From the IMG/VR virus record IMGVR_UViG_2617270990_000006: a DNA stretch of 14,499 nucleotides; one strand, written 5' to 3'. Shown here one piece after another: positions 344-14,450 of the stretch (its first letter is position 1; each line of letters opens with the position of its first letter). The notes under the pieces were generated by a model. It did not search any database and was not told the DNA's origin. It worked only from the letters and a program-made list of their open reading frames with translations. Origin of the DNA: a virus. Lineage: Duplodnaviria; Heunggongvirae; Uroviricota; Caudoviricetes. The translations under genes were made by a program, and so were the position numbers.

Positions 344-419
344 TGGTGGCCCTTGCTGGATTTGAACCAGCGACCTGGCGATTATGAGTCGCTCGCTCTC
401 ACCACTGAGCTAAAGGGCC
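344..419 (-). tRNA. tRNA with anticodon CAU (Ile2/ileX-like, as in ileZ of lambdoid/Stx phages; Met not excluded)
   Basis: Reverse complement GGCCCTTTAGCTCAGTGGTGAGAGCGAGCGACTCATAATCGCCAGGTCGCTGGTTCAAATCCAGCAAGGGCCACCA folds as a 76-nt cloverleaf: 7-bp acceptor stem, GCTC/GAGC D-stem, loop CTCATAA, GCTGG/CCAGC T-stem with TTCAAAT loop, encoded CCA. Close to E. coli ileX as I recall it. Confidence 0.85.
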
Positions 420-2092: not shown

Positions 2093-2914
2093 CTATCGCG
2101 TTACCCTCTTTAACTGCCGCTCCGCCCATGCCTCTTCAATGTCAAACCGAACCACCAACGTATCGTAAAAGCGTTTCACTGATTTTTTCCACGTATCAAG
2201 CGTGATAGCACTCGTCACTTTGCATATGGCATTAAATGCCTCCGTTGATGGCAGCCTTTCACAGCCACGACCACCACAACGCTGGCAATCTCTGATAACA
2301 GGCATACCACGTTTTACCGACTCTTCACGATGAATGGCGACACCACGCCCACGGCAATCCTTACAGGCGGTGGAAACCTCACCCTTTCCGCCACACTCCG
2401 GACAGGCAACTTTTACCACCTCCCTGACTTTTTTCCATTCTTCCCAGTAAGACGGATACACGCCTTTTGTGCACTTTGCCCACACTGGTGGCTTACCATC
2501 CGGATACTGGATCTTGTTTGTAAAAACCTCGCTTTCAATAAATTTTTTTCCGTGACAGCAGGGGCACTGTTTTTTGCTCGCCGCGCTACGGGCATAATCT
2601 TCAAACGCATACGAAGCCATAATGCGCATCACTACCGGTTTTATTTCTGCCGGAAGTTTTCTCAACGCCGCCACACGATCGCACCGACTGAGTGCATAAT
2701 CTGCCAGTAATTCTGTTGCCCGCGCCCTGTCATTCATACTGATGCCCATTTTCCCCAGGAACGCAGAAAACCCCATCTCAGCCCGATTCTGTGTCATGCC
2801 CTGCGCGGCCATCACATCAGTGATACTCAGCGCATCTTTTGACGTTGAGGCCGATGCATCGGTCAGGCCAGGGGATTTTGGGGAGTAGTATTTCGGTAAA
2901 TCTTCCAGTTTCAT
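2093..2914 (-). CDS. Late-gene antitermination protein Q (Cys-rich zinc-finger type)
   Basis: 273 aa with several CxxC pairs (CPCC, CPEC, CKDC, CQRC). Sits directly after rusA with an ATGA stop/start overlap at 2911-2914 and directly before the candidate late promoter and terminator. Confidence 0.7.
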   Translation of the reverse strand: MKLEDLPKYYSPKSPGLTDASASTSKDALSITDVMAAQGMTQNRAEMGFSAFLGKMGISMNDRARATELLADYALSRCDRVAALRKLPAEIKPVVMRIMASYAFEDYARSAASKKQCPCCHGKKFIESEVFTNKIQYPDGKPPVWAKCTKGVYPSYWEEWKKVREVVKVACPECGGKGEVSTACKDCRGRGVAIHREESVKRGMPVIRDCQRCGGRGCERLPSTEAFNAICKVTSAITLDTWKKSVKRFYDTLVVRFDIEEAWAERQLKRVTR

Positions 2915-3285
2915 TTTTTGACCTGCTCTTCATGCATTATGGGGTAAATCTTCACCCCCATACGTCCACCAGATACTGGCTGACCACGAACGATATTGAT
3001 TTCATCAAACTGCTCATCGTCCATTAACACTCCCGCATGCGTCAGCGCATCCAGCGGTGCTTTCAGGATATTGTCCAGGTCGCGACGACGCTTATCCGGT
3101 GGCTCTGCAATCACCTTTATCGCCAGCCTTCCGGACAGGCTTAATTTCAGCCGCTGCTGGCGAACAATAAGCGCCACAGCCCGGCGATAACGCTTTCCCT
3201 CCTCCGAGATAAAATATGTGCTGCCACGGCGTCGCCAGTAAGTGTTCACCGTCGGCGGGTAAGGTAAAACCAAATCTATGAGCAT
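2911..3285 (-). CDS. rusA: RusA-family Holliday junction resolvase
   Basis: 124 aa. PDKRRRDLDNILKAPLDALTHAG matches the RusA catalytic region (E. coli RusA [23 protein letters not shown] as recalled). ATG with GAGGTG SD. Confidence 0.9.
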   Translation of the reverse strand: MLIDLVLPYPPTVNTYWRRRGSTYFISEEGKRYRRAVALIVRQQRLKLSLSGRLAIKVIAEPPDKRRRDLDNILKAPLDALTHAGVLMDDEQFDEINIVRGQPVSGGRMGVKIYPIMHEEQVKK

Positions 3286-3297
3286 CAGTCACCTCTT

Positions 3298-4344
3298 TTA
3301 CCCAAGCACGCCAGTTGCAAAGGCGTGATCAAGAAAACGAAAAATTAAATCAACCTGAGAACCATGCTTTTCTTCGAACGCCAGAGGATCCGCATGAAGC
3401 TCGTTGTGATGCTCCCGACACAGCGGTAGCGTGAAAATATCGTGAGATTTTGTCCCCATTCCGCCCTGACCATGACCAATCAGGTGATGGGGATCGTCGG
3501 CTGGCTTACCACAACACGCACACGGCTGTGTCTTCACCCAGCGTGTGTATTTCTCGTTAACCCAGCGGCGACGTTTAGGTCGTTTCATGAAAGATTCCGG
3601 AGACTCAGGATCAACGGCAATGCTGACCACCGTCTCTTCCTGTGGCGGGTTTTGCTGGTGGGCGTGAGGCAGCGGCGCAAGATTTTTTGTGCGCTGCTTC
3701 AGTATGCTGGTGGCGGTCTGCTCTCCCGGTACGATGTCGCTTTCACGGTACATTGAGCGGATTTTTTCCGCACGCAACCCCAGCGAACGACGTAATACCG
3801 CTTCCGGTAGCGCGTCCGCCACCTGATTGCGGACCGCCCACCAGGATAATTCAGCCAGCGATAATTCCCGTTCCTGCGAGCCATTCATTGCATGGCGTAT
3901 GACGTCAATCATCCATGCAGACAGGTTTTGGTGAGCAAGTTGCCCGAGTGATTCGGAGGTCTGGTCGCGCAGCTGGTTGTCGCAGTGCCAGCACAACACC
4001 ATTGCGCCGGTACCATAACGGTGAATGACGGTTTCACTGTGGTGATAATCGCCGTGTGGCCACTGGCAGGATTTAACATGGCGCAGTAACCAGTCAGACA
4101 ATGCGCCAGCGCCACCAGCAGCACGAATCACTCGTTCGTCGCTGAAAAATGGCAGTAATGATTTATCCTCCGCCAGCGGCTGGCGAACGACAGGAACGAC
4201 CCCGGACGGCAGATTACGCATGCTTTTCGGTTCCGGCTCCACCAGTACCCGGGTATTGTGGAATACCGGCATGGATTCACGGCCCGGCTTAACGATCACC
4301 AGCCCGAGTTCCGGTACCAGAACAGGTCGAAGTAATACCCGCAC
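3298..4344 (-). CDS. DUF968-family phage protein (YdfU-like) with C-terminal HNH/zinc-finger-like motif
   Basis: 348 aa. GTG start at 4344 with a strong GGAGG SD 4 nt upstream, 1 nt after the stop of the preceding ORF. C-terminus CACCGKPADDPHHLIGHGQGGMGTKSHDIFTLPLCREHHNELH. Confidence 0.7.
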   Translation of the reverse strand: MRVLLRPVLVPELGLVIVKPGRESMPVFHNTRVLVEPEPKSMRNLPSGVVPVVRQPLAEDKSLLPFFSDERVIRAAGGAGALSDWLLRHVKSCQWPHGDYHHSETVIHRYGTGAMVLCWHCDNQLRDQTSESLGQLAHQNLSAWMIDVIRHAMNGSQERELSLAELSWWAVRNQVADALPEAVLRRSLGLRAEKIRSMYRESDIVPGEQTATSILKQRTKNLAPLPHAHQQNPPQEETVVSIAVDPESPESFMKRPKRRRWVNEKYTRWVKTQPCACCGKPADDPHHLIGHGQGGMGTKSHDIFTLPLCREHHNELHADPLAFEEKHGSQVDLIFRFLDHAFATGVLG

Positions 4345-4345
4345 G

Positions 4346-4624
4346 TTACCTCCAGATGCGTTGCTGGAATGTGCGGGACGGACGCGGTGGGCGTTCGGAA
4401 TAAGGGAGTCTGACGTAGATTATCCAGTGACGATAATCGAGGGTGAGGGCTTTCCTAAACTCATATCCACGTCTGCGGTAGTTATGAATCAGCCATTCGG
4501 CCTGTTCTTCAGTGCATGGGGGATGCTGGAACCAGTCAGATTTGAAAGTGCGGGAACGCCGCCCGTGCCTGCTGGCAAAGACGGCAGAATCATCAGAATT
4601 GTGTAATTTGGTATCGTGCGCCAT
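4346..4624 (-). CDS. Hypothetical protein (92 aa from ATG at 4624)
   Basis: The track start at 4705 is TTG and would overlap the upstream terminator, so the first ATG (MAHDTKL...) is preferred; SD weak. Arg-rich, no family recognised. Confidence 0.35.
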   Translation of the reverse strand: MAHDTKLHNSDDSAVFASRHGRRSRTFKSDWFQHPPCTEEQAEWLIHNYRRRGYEFRKALTLDYRHWIIYVRLPYSERPPRPSRTFQQRIWR

Positions 4625-4693
4625 CGGTTGTCTCTGCTGGCGCAGCAGGTGCCAGTTGTTCAGGCTGGCGTGTGGATTGTAAACCAGAATGCC

Positions 4694-4722
4694 AGGAAAA
4701 AACAAAACCCGCGAAGCGGGTT
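4694..4722 (-). terminator. Intrinsic terminator closing the R-M island
   Basis: Hairpin AACCCGC-GAA-GCGGGTT (4706-4722) followed on the minus strand by TTTGTTTTTTCC; about 70 bp past the endonuclease stop. Confidence 0.6.
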
Positions 4723-4794
4723 AGTAAAAATGTACTGAAGTCAATGACGTGCCATCACAGTTAAAATATGACAGACTCTATTTACGTAGAGATG

Positions 4795-5673
4795 TCAGAC
4801 TGCAAGATCCAAGGGAAGATCAGAAATATCCTTTAATCTTTTACCATTAACCATCACGGAAAGCATGTCAGCTGCATCGCTGAGCCCCAGTATTTCAACT
4901 GCTGATATAAGTTCATAAAGCGCAAAATGATACACGCAATCTATATCACCAGTACCAAGAGCAATAGACGCCAGACGACTTGGAGTAGGCTCAGCAGTAA
5001 CAACCATTACATGAGGGAGATTTCCCTTACGGTTGCGAATAAGATTTAATGCCTCAGAACGAGCATTCTGGGCCCGGTCGCTTCTTATTGTCCATTTGCA
5101 GGAAATACTTGCGTGTAATATTGGTTTCCCACCATTCGAACTCCTGAGAGCTGACATGCGGGTAACAGAATCATCCACCAGTAATTCAGGACTGTTGATA
5201 ACTTGATCACATTCAGGTTCTCTTTCAACAATAATATCTGGTGAAATCGTATAATCACTCCCCAGTGCAGCAGCTAGCTGAGGATTACTTTTTGCAGCAC
5301 TATCCAATGCTATAAGATGGGCATATTGTTCATATTTAGCTATCTCTAATCTGTTTCTACCAGAAACCTGATGTACATTCCATTTTCCAGGGCGTAAGTG
5401 GCTGAGTTTAAAAAAGGTTTTTTCTATAAACTCTGCGCAGATACTCTCAAACTGATTACCAGATGTTTGCCCTGCAACACGTTCACCAATCGTTTCAGCC
5501 TGCAAGAAGCGAGCAATTTCTCTTGCTATAGCTTTACTGTTTTTGTTACTGCTATCTGCGTTACTAACAACTCCGGCAGTATTAATTGTGAGCGTATTCA
5601 GTAACAATTGGGCATGAAACTCCTTTCTGGCTTCAGCAAAACCAACTATGCTGTCAACCAAATCTCCATTCAT
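4795..5673 (-). CDS. Type II restriction endonuclease, NgoMIV/Cfr10I/Bse634I-like (CCGG-core site predicted)
   Basis: Preferred start is the ATG at 5673 (AAGGAAA SD 9 nt upstream, 14 nt after the methyltransferase stop); the track ORF runs to 5808 with a TTG. Motifs SPDIIV ... SCK ... E with Asp-to-Lys 47 aa and Lys-to-Glu 14 aa, the spacing I recall for NgoMIV (Asp140/Lys187/Glu201). Confidence 0.7.
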   Translation of the reverse strand: MNGDLVDSIVGFAEARKEFHAQLLLNTLTINTAGVVSNADSSNKNSKAIAREIARFLQAETIGERVAGQTSGNQFESICAEFIEKTFFKLSHLRPGKWNVHQVSGRNRLEIAKYEQYAHLIALDSAAKSNPQLAAALGSDYTISPDIIVEREPECDQVINSPELLVDDSVTRMSALRSSNGGKPILHASISCKWTIRSDRAQNARSEALNLIRNRKGNLPHVMVVTAEPTPSRLASIALGTGDIDCVYHFALYELISAVEILGLSDAADMLSVMVNGKRLKDISDLPLDLAV

Positions 5674-5686
5674 TTCTGGATTTCCT

Positions 5687-6811
5687 TCAGGCTGCTTGAC
5701 TATTCTTACTGATGTTATTCTTATACCGTCCCTGCAAAACTCCATACACATATTGTGCGATTTTTGCCGCAAATAGCGGTGGAACAGCATTCCCGATCTG
5801 CTTTGCAATCTCAGTTTTTGAACCGGTAAAAATGAAATTATCAGGAAAAGACATTAATCTCGCTGCCTCACGATGAGTTATTGGCCGATCCTCTTCCGGA
5901 TGTAAATATCGCCCTTTCTCCGGTTTGAAAAACTCAGTACGAATCGTTACTGAAGGTCTGTCCCACCACAGACGTCCAAACAAATCGGTCCCTCCAGATT
6001 TCTTTTTTAGCCAGCACGCCGGGGTTATATCAGGTCTTTTTTTCTGTAAATCGAAACGGTTACCTCCTGGTGGAACCGCTTTATATCGCTCCAAAGAAAC
6101 AGGTGTGGGATTACGCCCAAAATGTAAGTTCAGCGGAGGAAGTTCATTACGAATATCAGTTCCAACAGGAGCAGGTAAGTCACCAATTGCATCACGCGTA
6201 CAGACCCATTCAGGCAAAGCGACATCCTTATCAGGGGAACGATGCGTTGGTGCTGGCGGGAACGCCGGAATACTATGCACATCGAAGAGTTCTCGTTTGA
6301 TACCGATTGCTATCGTTCGTTTTCTTGTCTGAGGTACTCCATAGTCAGCAGTATTCAACACCATTGGATTAAGCAGAATAAAGCCCATGGATTTCGCTCT
6401 AAACGTAATGTCCGCAAACTCATCGCTTATCAGCAATCCGGGGACATTTTCCATGACGAACATACAAGCCCTTGAACGCTCAATGACATCCATATAAGGC
6501 TCCCACAATGCTCTTCGGTGATCACCATAACGATTCTTATTTAATAAACTGAATCCCTGACACGGGGGGCCACCTATGACCACATCAGCCTCAGGAACAG
6601 TATTGCTGGATGCCCACTCCTCAATATTTGCCTGAACTCCATGCAAACCAAAATTGGCATTGTAGGTATTTATAGCTGCAGCATTATTATCAATAGCAAG
6701 GATACTTTCAAAGTAGTCAGACATCTCTCCATGAAGAAAACCATAAGATAATCCACCTGCCCCACAAAAGAGGTCTATCACTCTGAATTTATTTAATTCT
6801 TTCATCCGCAT
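5687..6811 (-). CDS. DNA (cytosine-5)-methyltransferase, cognate of the adjacent endonuclease
   Basis: 374 aa with C5-MTase motifs in order: FCGAGG (I), GGPPCQGFS (IV), ENV (VI), QTRKR (VIII), GNAVPP (X). Confidence 0.9.
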   Translation of the reverse strand: MRMKELNKFRVIDLFCGAGGLSYGFLHGEMSDYFESILAIDNNAAAINTYNANFGLHGVQANIEEWASSNTVPEADVVIGGPPCQGFSLLNKNRYGDHRRALWEPYMDVIERSRACMFVMENVPGLLISDEFADITFRAKSMGFILLNPMVLNTADYGVPQTRKRTIAIGIKRELFDVHSIPAFPPAPTHRSPDKDVALPEWVCTRDAIGDLPAPVGTDIRNELPPLNLHFGRNPTPVSLERYKAVPPGGNRFDLQKKRPDITPACWLKKKSGGTDLFGRLWWDRPSVTIRTEFFKPEKGRYLHPEEDRPITHREAARLMSFPDNFIFTGSKTEIAKQIGNAVPPLFAAKIAQYVYGVLQGRYKNNISKNSQAA

Positions 6812-6989
6812 CCATATGCCTCAGATTAATGTTGAGCGTCTTACAGGACGCGTAATGTTAACTGGGGCTTTCTCTATCTGCCTTTTGGTGTTCATGCCTG
6901 AGGCAGACAGCCTCAGGCACCCGCAGCAATTCTACTTAACTCACGTCACCTCGCCAATATGAAATCAATCAGAAAGGTGATCCATAAAA

Positions 6990-7676
6990 TCACTCCTTCT
7001 CTTCTTTTCCGTAGTGGAGTTGGCCAATTTTGATAAGAGGGCGTCCCTGAGATTTGCGGTGTAGATTGGTATCGCGCAGAGAATACACACAGCCACAATA
7101 TTCCTGCTGATAGAATTTTTCGCGCTTGCTGATTTCAATCATACGGGACGAGCCGCCCTGCTTGCGCCAGTTATAATCCCAGTACACCATACCCGGATAA
7201 TGCGCAACAGCTCGCCGCCCACACTCGTTAACCTGCTGCATATTTTTCCAGCGTGAAATGCCCAGTGAACTGCTGATCACACTGAAACCATTTTCAGCAG
7301 CGTACAACGCTGTCCGCTCAAAACGCATGTCAAAACACATGGTACAACGGATCCCCCTCTCAGGCTCCCATTCCATTCCTTTGGCACGTTCAAACCAGTT
7401 GTCGGTGTCGTAATCAGCATCGATAAACGGCACGCCGTGTTGTTCAGCAAAGCGAATATTTTCATCCTTACGAATTAAATACTCTTTCTGAGGATGAATG
7501 TTCGGGTTGTAGAAAAAGATGGTGTAGTCGATTCCCGAGGCCTGAAGCGCCTCCATCACTTCACCGGAACATGGAGCACAGCAAGAGTGCAGTAGTAGTT
7601 TGTTTGCCCCGTTTGGGAGTTCCAATTTAGGCCGTTTGAAATCAGCAATAGTCATAAATATTTTTATTGGGGTCAT
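6990..7676 (-). CDS. QueH-like protein (DUF208, epoxyqueuosine reductase family)
   Basis: 228 aa. N-terminal [13 protein letters not shown] and C-terminal YCGCVYS conserved Cys motifs as I recall for QueH/DUF208. AT-rich like the neighbouring R-M genes. No convincing SD at either candidate ATG (7676 or 7655). Confidence 0.7.
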
Positions 7677-7829
7677 GAAAATAGCACAGAGTGTAGCATC
7701 AGAGCAGGGCTATCGGGAATATATGTCTAAATCTGGTAATATCTGGTTTTGACGCAAAGCGGACAACCACGCTGGCTCTACCCTGCGCCATGAAAATGTC
7801 AATTCACATCTGAACTAATGCTCTTTAAT

Positions 7830-8225
7830 CTAGTAACGTCTAAAATACCTAACATTTCCTTGATAAAATGTCAGTACACGCTGCATAGCTTCGCTCTTCC
7901 GGCACTCGCGACAGATTATATTCAGGCGCCTGTCGTAGCGGCGTATTTCTCCGTCTGGTAACTTTCGAATCAGTGTCGGGTCAGCAGCCTTCTCCGGTGT
8001 CTTACGCCATACGCGATACGCCTGCTCTGATGGAAATACCCCGCAATCACAGAGCCAGACATCACCACTGGCCGCAAGCGCACCAGATAAACGACGAATA
8101 GCGGTCTTACTGACACCCGTTTTATCTGCCAGTTGTCGAAAAGTTTCTCGTCCGCTCAGGCGCACGAATTCCACAATGCGCGCCTTCACTTCTTCCCGCT
8201 CTTCTGGTGTAAATACTTTTGCCAT
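7830..8225 (-). CDS. Hypothetical protein with HTH-like segment and Cys pairs (131 aa from ATG at 8225)
   Basis: The track start at 8240 is TTG; the ATG at 8225 has GGAGG 5 nt upstream. LADKTGVSKTAIRRLSG is HTH-like; CDC ... CRECRK suggests a zinc ribbon. Confidence 0.5.
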   Translation of the reverse strand: MAKVFTPEEREEVKARIVEFVRLSGRETFRQLADKTGVSKTAIRRLSGALAASGDVWLCDCGVFPSEQAYRVWRKTPEKAADPTLIRKLPDGEIRRYDRRLNIICRECRKSEAMQRVLTFYQGNVRYFRRY

Positions 8226-8240
8226 AAGCGCCTCCGGCAA

Positions 8241-9011
8241 TCACTTTTCCGACACAATACGACCGGATGAATCGACAATCTGTCGAACAATATCCCGGTG
8301 CTTGTACAGCTCCCGCAGCGCGGCGCAGACTCGCTCCCACTTCTGAACCTGACCTTTTGCCCGGCGCAGCTCGCGGTTAGCCACATGCAGCGATGGTAAA
8401 ATCAGACCATCCGGATGTTTTCTGGTGAACGACGGCTGTGACTGCACTGTGACCGCCACACTTTCAGTTTTTATTTCTTCCTGTGTTTCCGCTTCCCGGA
8501 CAGGTAACGCAATACCTGCTGGCTGAGGAATGGCTTTACCATCCGTTTCCGCTACGGATGCAGCTTCCGGCTCTGCCGGTAAATCAGCGCCCGGTATGCA
8601 GTAACGAAATTTACCGTTCTGATTTACGCGTGCCAGGCGCCCCGTTGCTGTTACGACCGCCAACGTGGAAGCAACCTTGCGAATGCTAACACCGAACTTA
8701 TCCGCCAGTTCCTCACACGTTTTAGCCCCATCCTGACAGATAAACTCAATCATCATGTCCGCGGTAACTTTTTGTTCGACCTCCCCGGTCAGCATATCCT
8801 GTGCTTCAGATTTTACTGGCCGCTCTTCGGTTACCCGGGATTCACCTTCGCCAGCCAGAAACCAGGTGTGACCAGTTTTATCAACGACGCCATTTCTTTT
8901 GAGTTCCCACAGCTCGTTGACAGCCTCTTCACGACTGATTCCAAGGCGAGCTGCCACCACATGTGAAGAGGCTTTTTTCAGTGCTTTCAGTGCGTCAAAT
9001 ACGGTTTCCAT
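8241..9011 (-). CDS. Hypothetical protein with two winged-helix-like domains (256 aa from ATG at 9011)
   Basis: The track start at 9029 is TTG; the ATG at 9011 has GGAGG 8 nt upstream. Two HTH-like segments (AARLGISREEAVNELWELKRNG and EELADKFGVSIRKVASTL), an acidic linker and a basic C-terminus. Confidence 0.55.
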   Translation of the reverse strand: METVFDALKALKKASSHVVAARLGISREEAVNELWELKRNGVVDKTGHTWFLAGEGESRVTEERPVKSEAQDMLTGEVEQKVTADMMIEFICQDGAKTCEELADKFGVSIRKVASTLAVVTATGRLARVNQNGKFRYCIPGADLPAEPEAASVAETDGKAIPQPAGIALPVREAETQEEIKTESVAVTVQSQPSFTRKHPDGLILPSLHVANRELRRAKGQVQKWERVCAALRELYKHRDIVRQIVDSSGRIVSEK

Positions 9012-9044
9012 TAATATTTCCTCCGACAAAATCGTTTCTCAGAT

Positions 9045-9707
9045 TCAAATAAAACCAGCTGCCTTCCGGCGTTCGTATTCCTGTTTCAGCCGTTCAATTG
9101 GCGTTGGCCCTTGCGGGTGTTTCGCCCCTTCCAGTTGTCGTCGCACTGGCGGAACACTCATCCCGTTACCAACATGCTTTGCCCATTTCGTCAGTTGCCG
9201 TTCCGCAAGTCGTTTTAACTCACCCTGCGTCATCTGGCGCTCAATCCCTCTGGTACGCATTTCGAGGCAGATGTGGTACAGCACAGGCTGTGGCCACGGG
9301 TATTTATCACTCCCGTCGTATCGCCAGGATTCATTGCGCCAGCGCCGGTACTCTTCCATCACTGCATCCACCGTAAGACCAAATGGATTTGCCCCACTCT
9401 CCGAAATCAGTGCAACAAACTCAGCCAGGTCCGGGGGCCACGTTTCACCCGCCCGGCAGCGGTCCATGCACTGACGGCAGACCAGCCGGATTTGCTGTTC
9501 AGTCATCGCGCCAATCTGGGCAATCCAGAGCTTCGAAGGTGCGGCCCCGTTCTTCTGTGTCCAGCGGTTCGAATACACCTCCCCCATAAGCTCCCACAGC
9601 TTCCAGGCCGTTTCCGTTGCTGATAAATCCGTTGTCACGTTCCCACTGTTCGCGTGCTGCCCGGATTTCCTGAACTGCCCGTGATGCCGTGCCACCTGAT
9701 GCTGCAT
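9045..9707 (-). CDS. Replication protein P-like (helicase loader)
   Basis: 220 aa. ATG at 9707 with AAGGGGG SD 6 nt upstream. WPPDLAEFVALI, YPWPQPVLYHICL and MTQGELKRLAERQL resemble lambda P (PSPGQFVAWC, YPWKSNAHYWL, LTDAELRRKAADEL as recalled). Overlaps the O-like ORF by 209 nt out of frame. Confidence 0.6.
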   Translation of the reverse strand: MQHQVARHHGQFRKSGQHANSGNVTTDLSATETAWKLWELMGEVYSNRWTQKNGAAPSKLWIAQIGAMTEQQIRLVCRQCMDRCRAGETWPPDLAEFVALISESGANPFGLTVDAVMEEYRRWRNESWRYDGSDKYPWPQPVLYHICLEMRTRGIERQMTQGELKRLAERQLTKWAKHVGNGMSVPPVRRQLEGAKHPQGPTPIERLKQEYERRKAAGFI

Positions 9708-10515
9708 GGCTTACCCCCTTGCTGACTGGTTTTACCTGTGCCCTGACGTGCTGCACGTGGCGGGCAAATTTCTGCTCCCACTGAACCTGCGTGAAAACCT
9801 TCCCCTCCGCCATCCAGTAATCCCGGAATGCGGCAAGCTCTGCAGGTGTAAATTCCGGCTCAGGCAGAGCCATACCCCACACTGCTGCCCGTTGTCGAAA
9901 ATCCGACGACAGCTGCCAGACAGTAGTCATCGAAAATTTCCCGATCGGTTCGCTCAGGCCGTCCAGGTATTCAGGTTCGGCTGTCTGCAACGGCGCACCA
10001 TGCGACTCACCGGTTGGAGCACTCTCGCGCATGCGCGCGTTATGTGTGGGGTTTAATTCTGTATCTGTATCTTTATCTGTCGTGACTTGTCGTGACATGT
10101 GCGTGACATTTCGTGACGCGCCGTGACAATCGCCATTTTGTTCCCGCTTTCTTTCCCTCTCACGCTGCGCCCTCTTGCGCTCTGCCGGAGATTTTGCGGT
10201 TTGCGAAATATTGCCGTTGTCCTCTTTAAGCACCTGGCGTTTTTCCCATCCAGTGATTAAATCACCATCAAGTACCCGCCCCTGCATCGTCTGCAAAATT
10301 GAATCAATTACCTCTTCTGTCACGTCGAGCGCACTTGCCAAATCTTCTGTCGTGACATCAATGTGACCTCGCGTGACATTTCGTGACGCGCTCACCAGGA
10401 GGTGGATATACACTGCCATCACTGTTGCAATTGGCTGCCCTGACACCCTGGCAATTGTTCGCCACTTAGGGTCATTTGGCATGTCATGCCATAATCTGAG
10501 CCAGGCGTTAGCCAT
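9499..10515 (-). CDS. Replication initiator (O-like) with origin iterons inside the coding sequence
   Basis: 338 aa from the ATG at 10515 (AAGAGGTG SD); the track start at 10521 is GTG. Two clusters of phased CGTGAC repeats fall inside the gene and encode a repeated ASRNVT peptide. Sits between the cII-position gene and the P-like gene. Confidence 0.65.
   Translation of the reverse strand: MANAWLRLWHDMPNDPKWRTIARVSGQPIATVMAVYIHLLVSASRNVTRGHIDVTTEDLASALDVTEEVIDSILQTMQGRVLDGDLITGWEKRQVLKEDNGNISQTAKSPAERKRAQRERERKREQNGDCHGASRNVTHMSRQVTTDKDTDTELNPTHNARMRESAPTGESHGAPLQTAEPEYLDGLSEPIGKFSMTTVWQLSSDFRQRAAVWGMALPEPEFTPAELAAFRDYWMAEGKVFTQVQWEQKFARHVQHVRAQVKPVSKGVSHAASGGTASRAVQEIRAAREQWERDNGFISNGNGLEAVGAYGGGVFEPLDTEERGRTFEALDCPDWRDD
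10081..10127. repeat. Iteron cluster A: five CGTGAC repeats phased 10-11 bp (candidate ori)
   Basis: CGTGAC at 10081, 10091, 10102, 10112 and 10122. Preceded by an AT-rich stretch (10050-10080) and the palindrome CGCGCATGCGCG (10026-10037). Confidence 0.6.
10351..10391. repeat. Iteron cluster B: four (C/T)GTGAC repeats phased 10-11 bp
   Basis: Repeats at 10351, 10362 (TGTGAC), 10372 and 10382. The 21-mer GCGTGACATTTCGTGACGCGC at 10371-10391 is an exact copy of 10101-10121. Confidence 0.55.
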
Positions 10516-10586
10516 ACTCACCTCTTCTGATACCGAATCTTTTTACTCACGAGTTGCCGGAAGCGATTCGATATGGCTATTGTCAG

Positions 10587-11012
10587 TCAATGTACTGCCA
10601 CAGCATTTCCTGCCGGGCCACCACGGTTCATCTGATTGAAACCGGCGATTGCCACTGCGACAAAATCATCAGCGTCTCTCACCAGTCGCTCCCGCGTCTC
10701 CACCAGCTCCCGAAAATAAGCTGAACTGTGGCTGCGCATTCTGGCCACCAGCAAAGGTGGCATTGCCTTTTCGATCGCTGGTAACAACGCCTGAATTTTT
10801 TCAACTGCATCAGGGGTGTCTTTCTCTACCCAGCGGAAAATTTTCTGGGTATTACGGGCCAGGGCTTCCGGATGGCTGTCGTCGTACAGTTCCGGGAACG
10901 TCATCCCCAGTTCGAAATAAGTCCGGGCTATTTCAGCTGCTGGAACTTTCTCACCGTCTGGATACGCCCAGGCATTCATTGCCATGCGGATGTGTTCATG
11001 CTTGATTTTCAT
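10587..11012 (-). CDS. ydaT: cII-position regulator, YdaT-like
   Basis: 141 aa (E. coli YdaT is ~140 aa). ATG with GGGGGTGA SD; overlaps the cro-like gene by 17 nt. Assigned by position and length, not by remembered sequence. Confidence 0.5.
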   Translation of the reverse strand: MKIKHEHIRMAMNAWAYPDGEKVPAAEIARTYFELGMTFPELYDDSHPEALARNTQKIFRWVEKDTPDAVEKIQALLPAIEKAMPPLLVARMRSHSSAYFRELVETRERLVRDADDFVAVAIAGFNQMNRGGPAGNAVAVH

Positions 11013-11271
11013 GAATCACCCCCGCCTCTGGTTGTGTGTTAGCCTGATACTCGACAGGTAAGCCGTCGGTTGGGTTGGGATAAGTACTGCCATCAATCTC
11101 GTGCGGAGTTACTATCCAGCCTGTTGCTTCGCACCAGCGTAAAATTTTTTTCCCCGTAAGTTTCGCCCGTCCGGTAATGACATGGCTTACCATCCCTTGG
11201 GTTACCCCAACAATTTCAGCAAAATGCTTCTGAGTTATACCGGAATGATGCAAATATTCTCCAAGATTCAT
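10996..11271 (-). CDS. ydaS: Cro-like HTH regulator (YdaS-like)
   Basis: 91 aa. ATG with GAGGTG SD. HTH segment GITQKHFAEIVGVTQGMVSHVITGR. Divergent from the repressor gene across the operator region. Confidence 0.6.
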   Translation of the reverse strand: MNLGEYLHHSGITQKHFAEIVGVTQGMVSHVITGRAKLTGKKILRWCEATGWIVTPHEIDGSTYPNPTDGLPVEYQANTQPEAGVIHENQA

Positions 11272-11378: not shown

Positions 11379-11879
11379 ATGAAAAGAAAATCCCTGTCAG
11401 AGATCGACCTGCAAGCCGCCCAGAGACTGAAAGAAATCTGGACGGCGAAAAAAAATCAACTAGGGTTAACCCAAGAGCGTGCGGCAGAAATTCTGGGATT
11501 TTCGACACAGGGAGCTGTAAGCCATTATCTAAATGGTCAGACACCTTTAAATCTTGAGGCTGTTATCAAGTTCGCAGGGTTGCTGCAAGTTCCTCCCGAG
11601 TCAATCAGACCAGATATGGCCGAGTTGTTACAAATTGTAAGGATGTATCCCCAAGAATCTGGGGAGGACAATGTTGTCACTATATCTGCAGATATGGAAC
11701 AATCGGAAAACGAACTTCCGTTTAATATAGACCCCATGGAGCGGGATTTGCTCCAGACGTTCAGGGCTTTCCCCAAAGAAGATAAAGAGAAAATGCTTAA
11801 GGAAATGAAGGAGAAAAAAGAATCAATTGAAGAAATCGTTGCGCGATGGCTAGCTGCGCAAAAGGGTCGTCGCGCCTAA
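11379..11879 (+). CDS. paaR: Prophage repressor, HTH-XRE type without a LexA-like cleavage domain (PaaR-like)
   Basis: 166 aa. HTH LGLTQERAAEILGFSTQGAVSHYLNGQ. C-terminus is acidic/Lys-rich with no Ala-Gly or Ser/Lys peptidase motifs. First gene of a three-gene operon in the cI position. Confidence 0.7.
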   Translation: MKRKSLSEIDLQAAQRLKEIWTAKKNQLGLTQERAAEILGFSTQGAVSHYLNGQTPLNLEAVIKFAGLLQVPPESIRPDMAELLQIVRMYPQESGEDNVVTISADMEQSENELPFNIDPMERDLLQTFRAFPKEDKEKMLKEMKEKKESIEEIVARWLAAQKGRRA

Positions 11880-11896
11880 TCTGAGGAGGTAAAAAC

Positions 11897-12088
11897 ATGA
11901 GTACAGCCCTTTCCCCGATAATTTCTGAATTTGAAACAGTCGAACAAGAAAACAGCTATAACGAATGGTTGCGAACCAAAGTGGCAGCAAGCCTCTCAGA
12001 TCCCCGTCCTGCAATTCCACATGACGAAGTAATGGCTGAAATGGAAAACCTTATTGCTCAATTAGCTGCAACGAACAGGAGTGAGTAA
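11897..12088 (+). CDS. paaA: Antitoxin of the ParE toxin (PaaA-like)
   Basis: 63 aa. GAGGAGG SD 7 nt upstream. Stop overlaps the toxin start (TAATG). Length and context match the PaaA2 antitoxin of the paaR2-paaA2-parE2 system as recalled. Confidence 0.65.
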   Translation: MSTALSPIISEFETVEQENSYNEWLRTKVAASLSDPRPAIPHDEVMAEMENLIAQLAATNRSE

Positions 12089-12378
12089 TGCTGCCCATTT
12101 TATGGCTACCTTCTGCACGTGATGATTTACGTCAGATCGTAGCCTATATTGCTAAGGAAAACCCTCCCGCTGCACGTAGACTAAAAATACGCATTGAAAC
12201 ATCAGTTTTGTCACTTACTGAACACCCTTATCTGTACCCACCGAGCGAAAGAGTTCCAAGTCTTCGTGAGATAGTGACTCATCCTAACTACATAATACTT
12301 TACCGAGTAACAGCATCTAACATCGAGATCGTAAATGTAGTTCACTCACGAAGACAGTATCCAAACAAAACCTGTTAA
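12088..12378 (+). CDS. parE: ParE/RelE-superfamily toxin
   Basis: 96 aa. ParE-like pattern: WLPSARDDLRQIVAYIAKENPPAARRL ... LREIVTHPNYIILYRV ... IEIVNVVHSRR. AGGAG SD; coupled to the antitoxin. Confidence 0.85.
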   Translation: MLPILWLPSARDDLRQIVAYIAKENPPAARRLKIRIETSVLSLTEHPYLYPPSERVPSLREIVTHPNYIILYRVTASNIEIVNVVHSRRQYPNKTC

Positions 12379-13236: not shown

Positions 13237-14127
13237 TCAGGCTGCCAGATCATCGTTTCCGATGGAAGCATAATAAGCTTTTTCTGCTTCTGCCGGAGGA
13301 GTATGGCCCAGCCTTCCCAGCAATCGTCGATTGTTATACCAGTCCACCCACGTTAGTGTGGCCAGTTCCACTTCTGCACGGTTTTTCCAGCTCTTACGGT
13401 GTATTACCTCCGCTTTGTAAAGACCATTGATGCTCTCAGCCATCGCGTTGTCATACGAGTCGCCTGTACTCCCTGTTGATGCCAGTAATCCGGCTTCTTT
13501 TAGTCGCTCCGTATAGGCCAGTGACACATACTGAGAGCCTTTATCGCTGTGATGGATGGTGCCAGACGGACGACGGGCCCACAACGCCTGCTCCAGCGCA
13601 TCCAGCACGAATGTCGTTTCCATAGACGATGAGACCCGCCACCCCACGATGTATCCGGCAAACACATCAATGATAAACGCCACATAGACGAAGCCCTGCC
13701 ATGTGCTGACGTAAGTAAAATCAGCCACCCACAGCTGGTCAGGTCGTTCTGCCACGAACTGACGGTTTACGCGGTCGCCTGCGGCAACGGCTTTCCGGCT
13801 GATGGTCGTACGGACCTTTTTACCCCGGAGAACACCGGCAAGTCCCATAACCGCCATGAGACGTGCCACTGTACATCTGGCCACCCTGATTCCTTCCCGT
13901 AACAACTGACGCCAGACTTTACGCACACCGTACACCTGATGATTTTCATCGTATACGCGCTGTATCTCTCTCTTCAGCCAGTCGTCGTGCTGCGCACGGG
14001 CACTGCGTTTATCCGGATGATGTCGCTGTTGCTGACAATGGTAATACGTTGACGGGGCAATATGCAGTTCGCTGCATACCGGTCCGACCCCGTACTGCTC
14101 ACGCAGCTTATCCAGCAGTGGCATCAT
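13237..14127 (-). CDS. IS3-family transposase OrfB (integrase core, DDE)
   Basis: 296 aa matching IS629 OrfB as recalled ([16 protein letters not shown] ...). DDE residues in [17 protein letters not shown] and [15 protein letters not shown] overlap with orfA. Confidence 0.9.
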
Positions 14128-14450
14128 TTTTTCCAGAGGCGGTCGAACTCCGCCTTCGCAAAATAAGCGGAAGCCTGGCGAAGGATATCGTTACTGCGGC
14201 GCAGTTCACGATTTTCACGTTCCAGCTCTTTCAGACGCTGACGTTCAGCGCTGGTGAGCCCACCATCACCGCCCCCGGTATCCCGCTCATGCTGGCGAAC
14301 CCAGACACGCAGAGTCTCCGGCGTACAGCCAATCTTTGGGGCAATGGAACAAATTGCCGCCCACTGTGAGTCATATTCATCCTGACTTTCCAGAACCATA
14401 CGAATCGCCCGCTGACGGACTTCGGGGGAAAAACGAGTATTTTTAGTCAT
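14124..14450 (-). CDS. IS3-family transposase OrfA (HTH/leucine-zipper part)
   Basis: 108 aa, [51 protein letters not shown] ..., matching IS629/IS1203 OrfA as recalled. A-rich run GGAAAAAATGA at the orfA/orfB junction suits -1 frameshifting. Confidence 0.9.

Follow-up and report, generated by a model that had tools for sequence, protein, structure and literature searches.

Gene content around queH

The window, by which we mean the whole 14,499-nucleotide stretch of DNA analysed here, carries on its minus strand a queH gene that, judging from the order of its neighbours, belongs to a lambdoid prophage and forms part of the early-right operon, with the replication genes on one side of it and Q on the other. 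Read in the direction of transcription, the minus strand encodes a Cro-like HTH protein (10996-11271), a cII/YdaT-like protein (10587-11012), an O-like replication initiator (9499-10521), a P-like helicase loader (9045-9707), a DUF1627 protein (8241-9029) and a DUF977 or Ren-like exclusion protein (7830-8240; PF06163, 132 bits; phrog_142), the last of which is separated from queH by a spacer at 7656..7829. Past queH and a cargo slot described below, the same strand continues with a small phrog_1212 protein (4346-4705, PHROGs), a DUF968/HNH protein (3298-4344; PF06147, 256.7 bits), RusA (2911-3285), the Q antiterminator (2093-2914), an N6 methyltransferase (469-1518) and a tRNA(CAT) gene (344-419, ARAGORN). 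The plus strand holds a repressor-like HTH gene (11379-11879), a PaaA2/ParE toxin-antitoxin pair (11897-12378; PF21217 for the antitoxin and PF05016 for the toxin) and a DUF1391 gene, and an IS3-family element on the minus strand (13237-14450; orfA 14124-14450, orfB 13237-14127) closes the window. The initial annotation had called queH prophage-borne, which the Cro/cII-like, O-like, P-like, DUF1627, DUF977/Ren-like, DUF968, RusA and Q genes around it bear out.

This arrangement recurred in related elements. A DUF977 or Ren-like gene stood upstream of queH in nine of the ten annotated E. coli records sampled, including that of the temperate phage HannyBb, with a partial methyltransferase gene lying between the two in two of the sampled records; the record of strain CE2050 ends just upstream of queH. 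The same upstream gene was found by tblastn in E. albertii. On the other side of queH, the backbone resumes past the cargo slot (3298..4705, minus strand) and is collinear with the prophage of strain JE86-ST05 and with a second prophage locus (L011). As a contiguous unit, the whole window was present in no complete genome of our collection, the best match covering 75% of it. Searches of the 22 other larger ORFs of the window against Pfam, NCBIfam and PHROGs returned no que, tgt or dpd gene, in agreement with the earlier statement that queH has no que or dpd companion here.

Several further features of the window were observed. As listed, the O-like and P-like ORFs (9045-10521, minus strand) overlap by about 209 nt and phrog_15931 spans both, and an internal codon probably serves as the start of the P-like gene. 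At the prophage immunity region (11379-12378, plus strand), the HTH gene together with PaaA2 and ParE resembles a three-gene module of the PaaR-PaaA-ParE type. The IS3 element contains an ALIL frameshift pseudoknot (Rfam RF01497, 121.5 bits, 14053-14169), and it probably truncates the left arm of the prophage, since homology to related prophage loci ends at about 13194. The tRNA gene at 344-419 (minus strand), with its CAT anticodon, was called Met by ARAGORN; the homologous gene of RefSeq prophages is annotated as tRNA-Ile (lysidine-dependent Ile2), followed by two tRNA-Arg genes.

Identity, active site and predicted fold of the prophage QueH

The ORF occupies positions 6990..7676 of the minus strand and encodes 228 amino acids in its longest form. 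The coding sequence probably begins at the second ATG (position 7655, M8) and thus spans 6990..7655, or 221 aa, because the first seven codons vary across alleles (MTPIKIF versus MNLINTF), an in-frame stop interrupts the CE2050 allele within the first seven codons of the longer ORF, and the PGAP annotation of QueH is 221 aa long. No obvious Shine-Dalgarno sequence was seen at either candidate start codon. The assignment of this coding sequence draws on Pfam family PF02677, the invariant cysteines, an AlphaFold model searched with Foldseek, and the comparison of alleles together with PGAP.

In the Pfam search, the protein matched PF02677 (Epoxyqueuosine reductase QueH) along profile positions 1-174 of 175, with an E-value of 1.1e-65 and a score of 221.5 bits against a cutoff of 23.5 bits. 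This score is far above chance, and the observation of a QueH protein is real; the family assignment proposed from the sequence (QueH/DUF208) therefore stands over the full length of the profile. Both cysteine motifs pointed out in the initial annotation are present, the N-terminal 11-residue motif at residues 27-37 and YCGC at residues 193-196 of the 228-aa ORF. NCBIfam contained zero models matching QueH, which was uninformative and was not counted as a negative result. Among PDB sequences, phmmer retrieved only the QueH of T. maritima (7lc5 and related entries; E=8e-22, query residues 27-203), and 4774 relatives were found at E<=1e-3 in a representative library of 1.84 billion proteins.

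To examine the metal-ligand positions, QueH was aligned with 38 diverse homologs (33-86% identity), T. maritima QueH included. All 16 columns that are invariant in these 39 sequences were kept in the prophage protein, namely C32, C33, N59, E65, Y66, R69, E106, R110, C111, C114, K144, Q191, C194, G195, C196 and S199, and among them all six invariant cysteines (C32, C33, C111, C114, C194 and C196), so that the conserved metal ligands sought in this alignment are complete. A near-invariant seventh cysteine, C36, is also retained; T. maritima alone among the 39 differs, with D13 at this position, whereas the other aligned homologs share the cysteine of the prophage copy. The cysteines form the pattern CCAPC ... 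RCxxC ... YCGC, and this set reportedly ligates a [4Fe-4S] cluster and an adjacent iron in QueH. The PDB entries of the T. maritima enzyme include C9S and D13N mutants as well as a queuosine complex, and the choice of these mutants points to the importance of the two positions.

The AlphaFold2 model of the prophage protein reached a mean pLDDT of 93.9 and a pTM of 0.89, and its top Foldseek match was T. maritima QueH (7lc5), with a TM score (target) of 0.92 and an rmsd of 1.2 Å over 179 columns; the next-best folds, TtuA, LarE and YcfA, matched only at E~3e-4. By this model, the protein shares the adenine-nucleotide-alpha-hydrolase-like fold of the solved QueH. The prophage protein thus has the same profile, predicted fold, six invariant cysteines and other invariant residues as QueH proper (DUF208, PF02677/IPR003828; T. 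maritima PDB entries 7lc5, 7lc7 and 9deu), but it differs from a typical QueH in being encoded in a lambdoid early-right operon rather than at an ordinary chromosomal locus, and in coexisting with QueG rather than replacing it. Every QueH feature open to in-silico testing was found, and metal binding and catalysis are predicted beyond them. Taken as sequence, the gene is a genuine and intact queH copy on a lambda-like E. coli prophage, and its product would be catalytically active on tRNA.

A variable cargo slot behind queH

Directly downstream of queH, an inserted type II restriction-modification (R-M) cassette occupies 4724..6817 on the minus strand (PF00145 and PF09015; PADLOC MTase_II and REase_II). 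It comprises a C5 DNA methyltransferase (5687-6811; PF00145, 184.6 bits) and an NgoMIV-family endonuclease (4795-5673; PF09015, 422 bits), both on the minus strand, so the R-M system reported next to queH was confirmed. The longest endonuclease ORF extends to 5808, where it uses a TTG start and overlaps the methyltransferase by 122 nt, and its Pfam match begins at residue 64; the ATG at 5673, which is accompanied by an AGGA-type ribosome-binding site and gives a 292-aa protein, is the likely real start. Going by the family name, the specificity of the system would be GCCGGC. The 14.5-kb window contains 0 such NgoMIV-type sites, compared with about 3.3 expected from base composition, which may reflect a weak avoidance of the site and is not a statistically strong difference. 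The description of the locus as an AT-rich island fits the cassette, with a GC content of 42.9%, and does not fit queH itself (47.3%; whole window, 49.7%).

Just downstream of queH, at 6818..6987 on the minus strand, we found what remains of a type I toxin-antitoxin locus, hok/sok, namely its sok RNA and the hok leader, identified by RF01794 and by homology. Comparison of BLAST breakpoints with the R-M-free prophage of JE86-ST05 revealed that the 2094 bp at 4724-6817 replace a 287-bp segment containing hokD, the breakpoints falling at 4723/4724 and 6817/6818, while collinearity holds for the sok/hok leader (6818-6987) and for the flanks on either side. The 6818-6987 region is homologous to the region upstream of hokD in this prophage and in that of locus L011, and the Rfam match to sok (RF01794, 6742-6922, minus strand) scored 61 bits, where the gathering score is 59. 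The match extends about 76 nt beyond the homology breakpoint, into the start of the methyltransferase gene, and the hok leader remnant within 6742-6987 (minus strand) is without a hok ORF. Of the 5426 complete E. coli genomes, up to 3923 had a match to a segment overlapping this region (6818-6987 at most), and in most of them the match covered only part of it.

What follows queH changes from one element to another. In a survey of ten prophages or phages, hokD or a Mok/Hok-like gene followed queH in JE86-ST05, ST131 2017_APHA, HM670, PSS-11 and HannyBb, a Kiwa system in Z1002, 98192 and 50EVA, and a DUF1971 gene in CE2050. In the prophages with Kiwa, the system was complete by PADLOC (KwaA 337 bits and KwaB 528 bits; L013, 2153-3792, and also L010 and L015) and was located between queH and hokD. 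Downstream of the identical QueH protein, hokD was found on about 56 and the R-M cassette on 20 of the best 80 of 216 IMG/VR contigs. The R-M pair itself was present in 60 of the 5426 complete E. coli genomes, and the junction of methyltransferase and queH in 57 genomes, out of about 985 that are queH-positive. Since the gene after queH varies while queH stays constant, the slot is a swappable cargo and defence hotspot, and queH belongs to the conserved backbone beside it. The pairing of queH with R-M that the initial annotation had implied, and for which it had proposed a survey of other prophages, is incidental: the junction occurs in only 57 genomes, the usual neighbour is hokD/sok, and Kiwa takes the same slot elsewhere. 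The R-M genes have no relation to queH; they are cargo of a variable slot beside it, and their adjacency to queH has no special meaning except that it marks a cargo hotspot.

In its position, queH resembles the accessory ('moron') genes in the nin-like region of lambdoid prophages, phage tRNA genes and defence cargo among them, which likewise lie between the replication genes and Q beside swappable cargo, and the same queH prophages also carry tRNA genes downstream of Q. It differs from such genes in that QueH is a conserved housekeeping-type tRNA-modification enzyme and not a defence, toxin or exclusion gene.

Distribution, ancestry and probable function

At the DNA level, queH was detected in 995 of 5426 complete E. 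coli genomes (~18%), in 707 of them at >=99% identity, and the carriers include ST131, O157:H7, O103 and O111 strains. The matches were almost always chromosomal; 985 of the 995 cover >=80% of the gene, and the intactness of the reading frame was assessed in the four alleles that were translated. K-12 queG, for its part, matched in all 5426 genomes, so that queH in E. coli always comes on top of QueG and in no genome takes its place. The product already bears the name 'epoxyqueuosine reductase QueH' in PGAP and RefSeq, and at least 1000 contigs encode this very protein under the label 'MULTISPECIES: epoxyqueuosine reductase QueH [Enterobacteriaceae]'. A phage-borne QueH had been described as unexpected, a view that these counts do not sustain: the identity of the gene is already known, the gene is common in E. 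coli, and it represents no new kind of system. The initial annotation thus identified the gene correctly and overstated both its rarity and the weight of its R-M neighbour.

Among deposited phage genomes, the sole carrier at the DNA level was the temperate Escherichia phage HannyBb (93.5% identity), whose record gives queH as a 'hypothetical protein' and lists a small ORF overlapping it (PP925841, 33011-33697), and tblastn added only unannotated faecal fragments and doubtful records. IMG/VR held 216 viral contigs with a QueH relative, the best 80 of which encode the identical protein. In PHROGs, the corresponding family, phrog_3217, is labelled 'unknown function', and its profile starts at query residue 41, without the CCAPC motif. 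Phage databases therefore under-annotate QueH, and transfer of the name to phrog_3217 and HannyBb would be a small practical gain. We found no description of a biological role for a prophage or phage QueH in the searchable literature.

The closest relatives outside Escherichia are chromosomal QueH proteins of other Enterobacterales (80-92% identity), those of Scandinavium, Kluyvera and Enterobacter being 88-92% identical and those of Erwinia, Providencia, Proteus, Photorhabdus, Serratia and others about 80-86%. The neighbours of queH in these non-phage settings are tmcA/purC/bamC in Providencia, icd/rluE in Enterobacter and toxin-complex genes in Photorhabdus; among 80 species-representative loci, a lambdoid context was seen in E. 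albertii only. Across prophage alleles, dN/dS was 0.03-0.07 with dS up to 0.46, values that place QueH under strong purifying selection while phage-borne. The gene has also been kept in mosaic prophages whose replication and immunity modules differ, as well as in one isolated phage.

E. coli does not synthesise cobamides de novo. Its own epoxyqueuosine reductase, QueG (YjeS), is cobamide-dependent (PMC11841063, and PMC4646009 citing Frey 1988), whereas QueH is a cobalamin-independent replacement whose presence correlates with a lack of cobalamin supply (PMC5615194, PMC5372724). The two enzymes are present in the same cells and are predicted to carry out the same reaction, from oQ34-tRNA to Q34-tRNA, with unrelated folds and cofactors, QueG depending on cobalamin and Fe-S and QueH being independent of cobalamin (PMC11841063, PMC5615194 and PMC4646009). 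Both enzymes also occur in S. aureus, where the expression profiles of QueG and QueH differ (PMC13443448).

We consider it likely that the prophage gene is a captured housekeeping queH whose product is functional and provides a cobalamin-independent oQ-to-Q step for the host or the phage. A lambdoid phage lineage would have captured queH from an Enterobacterales chromosome and kept it as a stable accessory gene on the early-right strand, between the replication module and the Q antiterminator. The enzymes of E. coli would then make the oQ-tRNA substrate, in line with the status of tgt, queA and the preQ1 genes as core E. coli genes (PMC5372724), and QueH, as an iron-sulfur enzyme, would reduce the epoxide of oQ to Q at position 34 of tRNA-Asp, tRNA-Asn, tRNA-His and tRNA-Tyr, an activity that we infer from the 80-92% identity to chromosomal QueH. 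Because QueG needs a cobamide that E. coli cannot make, the prophage copy would free this step from the supply of B12 in the lysogen, during phage development, or both. An altered queuosine status of tRNA in the lysogen, as proposed from the sequence, would accordingly find its most plausible form in a changed oQ/Q ratio. If QueH is active, E. coli strains would differ in the cobamide dependence of queuosine maturation, about 18% of the complete genomes carrying on a prophage a second epoxyqueuosine reductase that is predicted to be B12-independent, and the locus would provide a straightforward test case for lysogenic conversion acting on the tRNA epitranscriptome.

With regard to expression, a promoter and terminator scan of the minus strand at 7656-7829 found no sigma-70-like promoter and no terminator, Rfam scans at gathering and at permissive thresholds found no riboswitch upstream of queH (the sole match being sok, downstream), and the RNA fold upstream of the gene was not better than that of shuffled sequences (z = -1.26). 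As none of these elements was found upstream of queH, the gene is presumably transcribed by read-through from the early-right promoter, and for the same reason it may be silent in a repressed prophage.

According to a preprint on Shewanella, both queG expression and the Q/oQ ratio rise when phages infect the cells (bioRxiv 10.64898/2026.03.05.709803), which suggests that the oQ-to-Q step can matter during infection. The fraction of NAU among Q-decoded codons was 0.55 in the phage backbone versus 0.53 in K-12 host genes, a small sample, and codon usage thus provides no argument for a phage-specific need. A search of the queH prophages for tRNA genes of the Q family found only those for Ile2(CAT) and Arg, and none in the HannyBb stretch. 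To our knowledge, a physiological difference between oQ-tRNA and Q-tRNA has not been established in E. coli. 

A more far-reaching proposal, which we regard as doubtful, is that lambdoid phages keep QueH because the step from oQ to Q serves as a genuine point of control in the conflict between phage and host rather than as a metabolic redundancy. Phage QueH would there uncouple wobble-base maturation from cobamide in order to reprogram or safeguard translation, at induction or in the lysogen, as part of a fitness module beside a defence hotspot. If this proposal were true, QueH would be a phage-encoded modifier of a tRNA anticodon base, of which our literature searches found no description, with strain-level effects on the physiology of STEC and ExPEC.

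It is improbable that queH is instead a neutral passenger, the hitch-hiking remnant of a past capture. The universal presence of queG in E. coli would make it redundant whenever B12 is available, a dedicated promoter was not found in the upstream spacer (7656-7829), and many queH prophages are degraded and Qin-like; against this stand the low dN/dS among prophage alleles at dS up to 0.46, the >=80% coverage of the gene in nearly all carriers, with the reading frame checked in four alleles, the retention of all invariant residues, and the conservation of the gene across mosaic prophages and an isolated phage.

We hold it very unlikely that QueH works together with the neighbouring R-M genes or belongs to a module for anti-phage defence or counter-defence, tuning tRNA status within a defence island, for instance. 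The idea draws on the slot that queH adjoins, with its defence and addiction cargo (NgoMIV-type R-M, Kiwa KwaA/KwaB and, mostly, hokD/sok), and on QatC, a QueC-like paralog of a Q-pathway enzyme that is a known defence component (PMC13639016). QueH, however, is constant where the cargo changes, and the junction counts and the excess of hokD over R-M on the IMG/VR contigs run against a coupling; it matched 0 families at E<=0.01 in PADLOC-DB 2.0, and it is an ortholog of housekeeping QueH (80-92% identity) whose conserved sites have not diverged. We rejected this explanation because of how seldom queH and the R-M genes occur together and because QueH had no match in PADLOC.

Scarcely credible, finally, is an action of QueH on 7-deazaguanine-modified phage or host DNA instead of tRNA: the initial annotation had raised a non-tRNA target and many phages carry Q-pathway genes for DNA modification, but the window, in contrast to Dpd and phage dG+ systems with their transglycosylase and preQ0 genes beside a que gene, has no DpdA/TGT-like transglycosylase, preQ0 gene or QueA homolog among its 22 larger ORFs scanned, none is annotated in the sampled prophage neighbourhoods, the sequence is nearly identical to tRNA-pathway QueH and without a match in PADLOC, and we know of no DNA form of epoxyqueuosine.

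Two observations concern queH outside E. coli. In Enterobacter sp. ECC-175 (L101, 1677-4669), a chromosomal queH of 89% identity lies about 1 kb downstream of icd, which is a known lambdoid attachment site in E. coli (e14, phage 21); this proximity may hint, speculatively, at how a phage met queH. In Pantoea, Erwinia typographi and E. tracheiphila (L104, L108 and L110), an ORF distantly resembling a C5-methyltransferase is found next to chromosomal queH, on the other strand and some 0.5-2 kb upstream of the gene, and these Erwiniaceae ORFs share 23-25% identity with the methyltransferase of the window.
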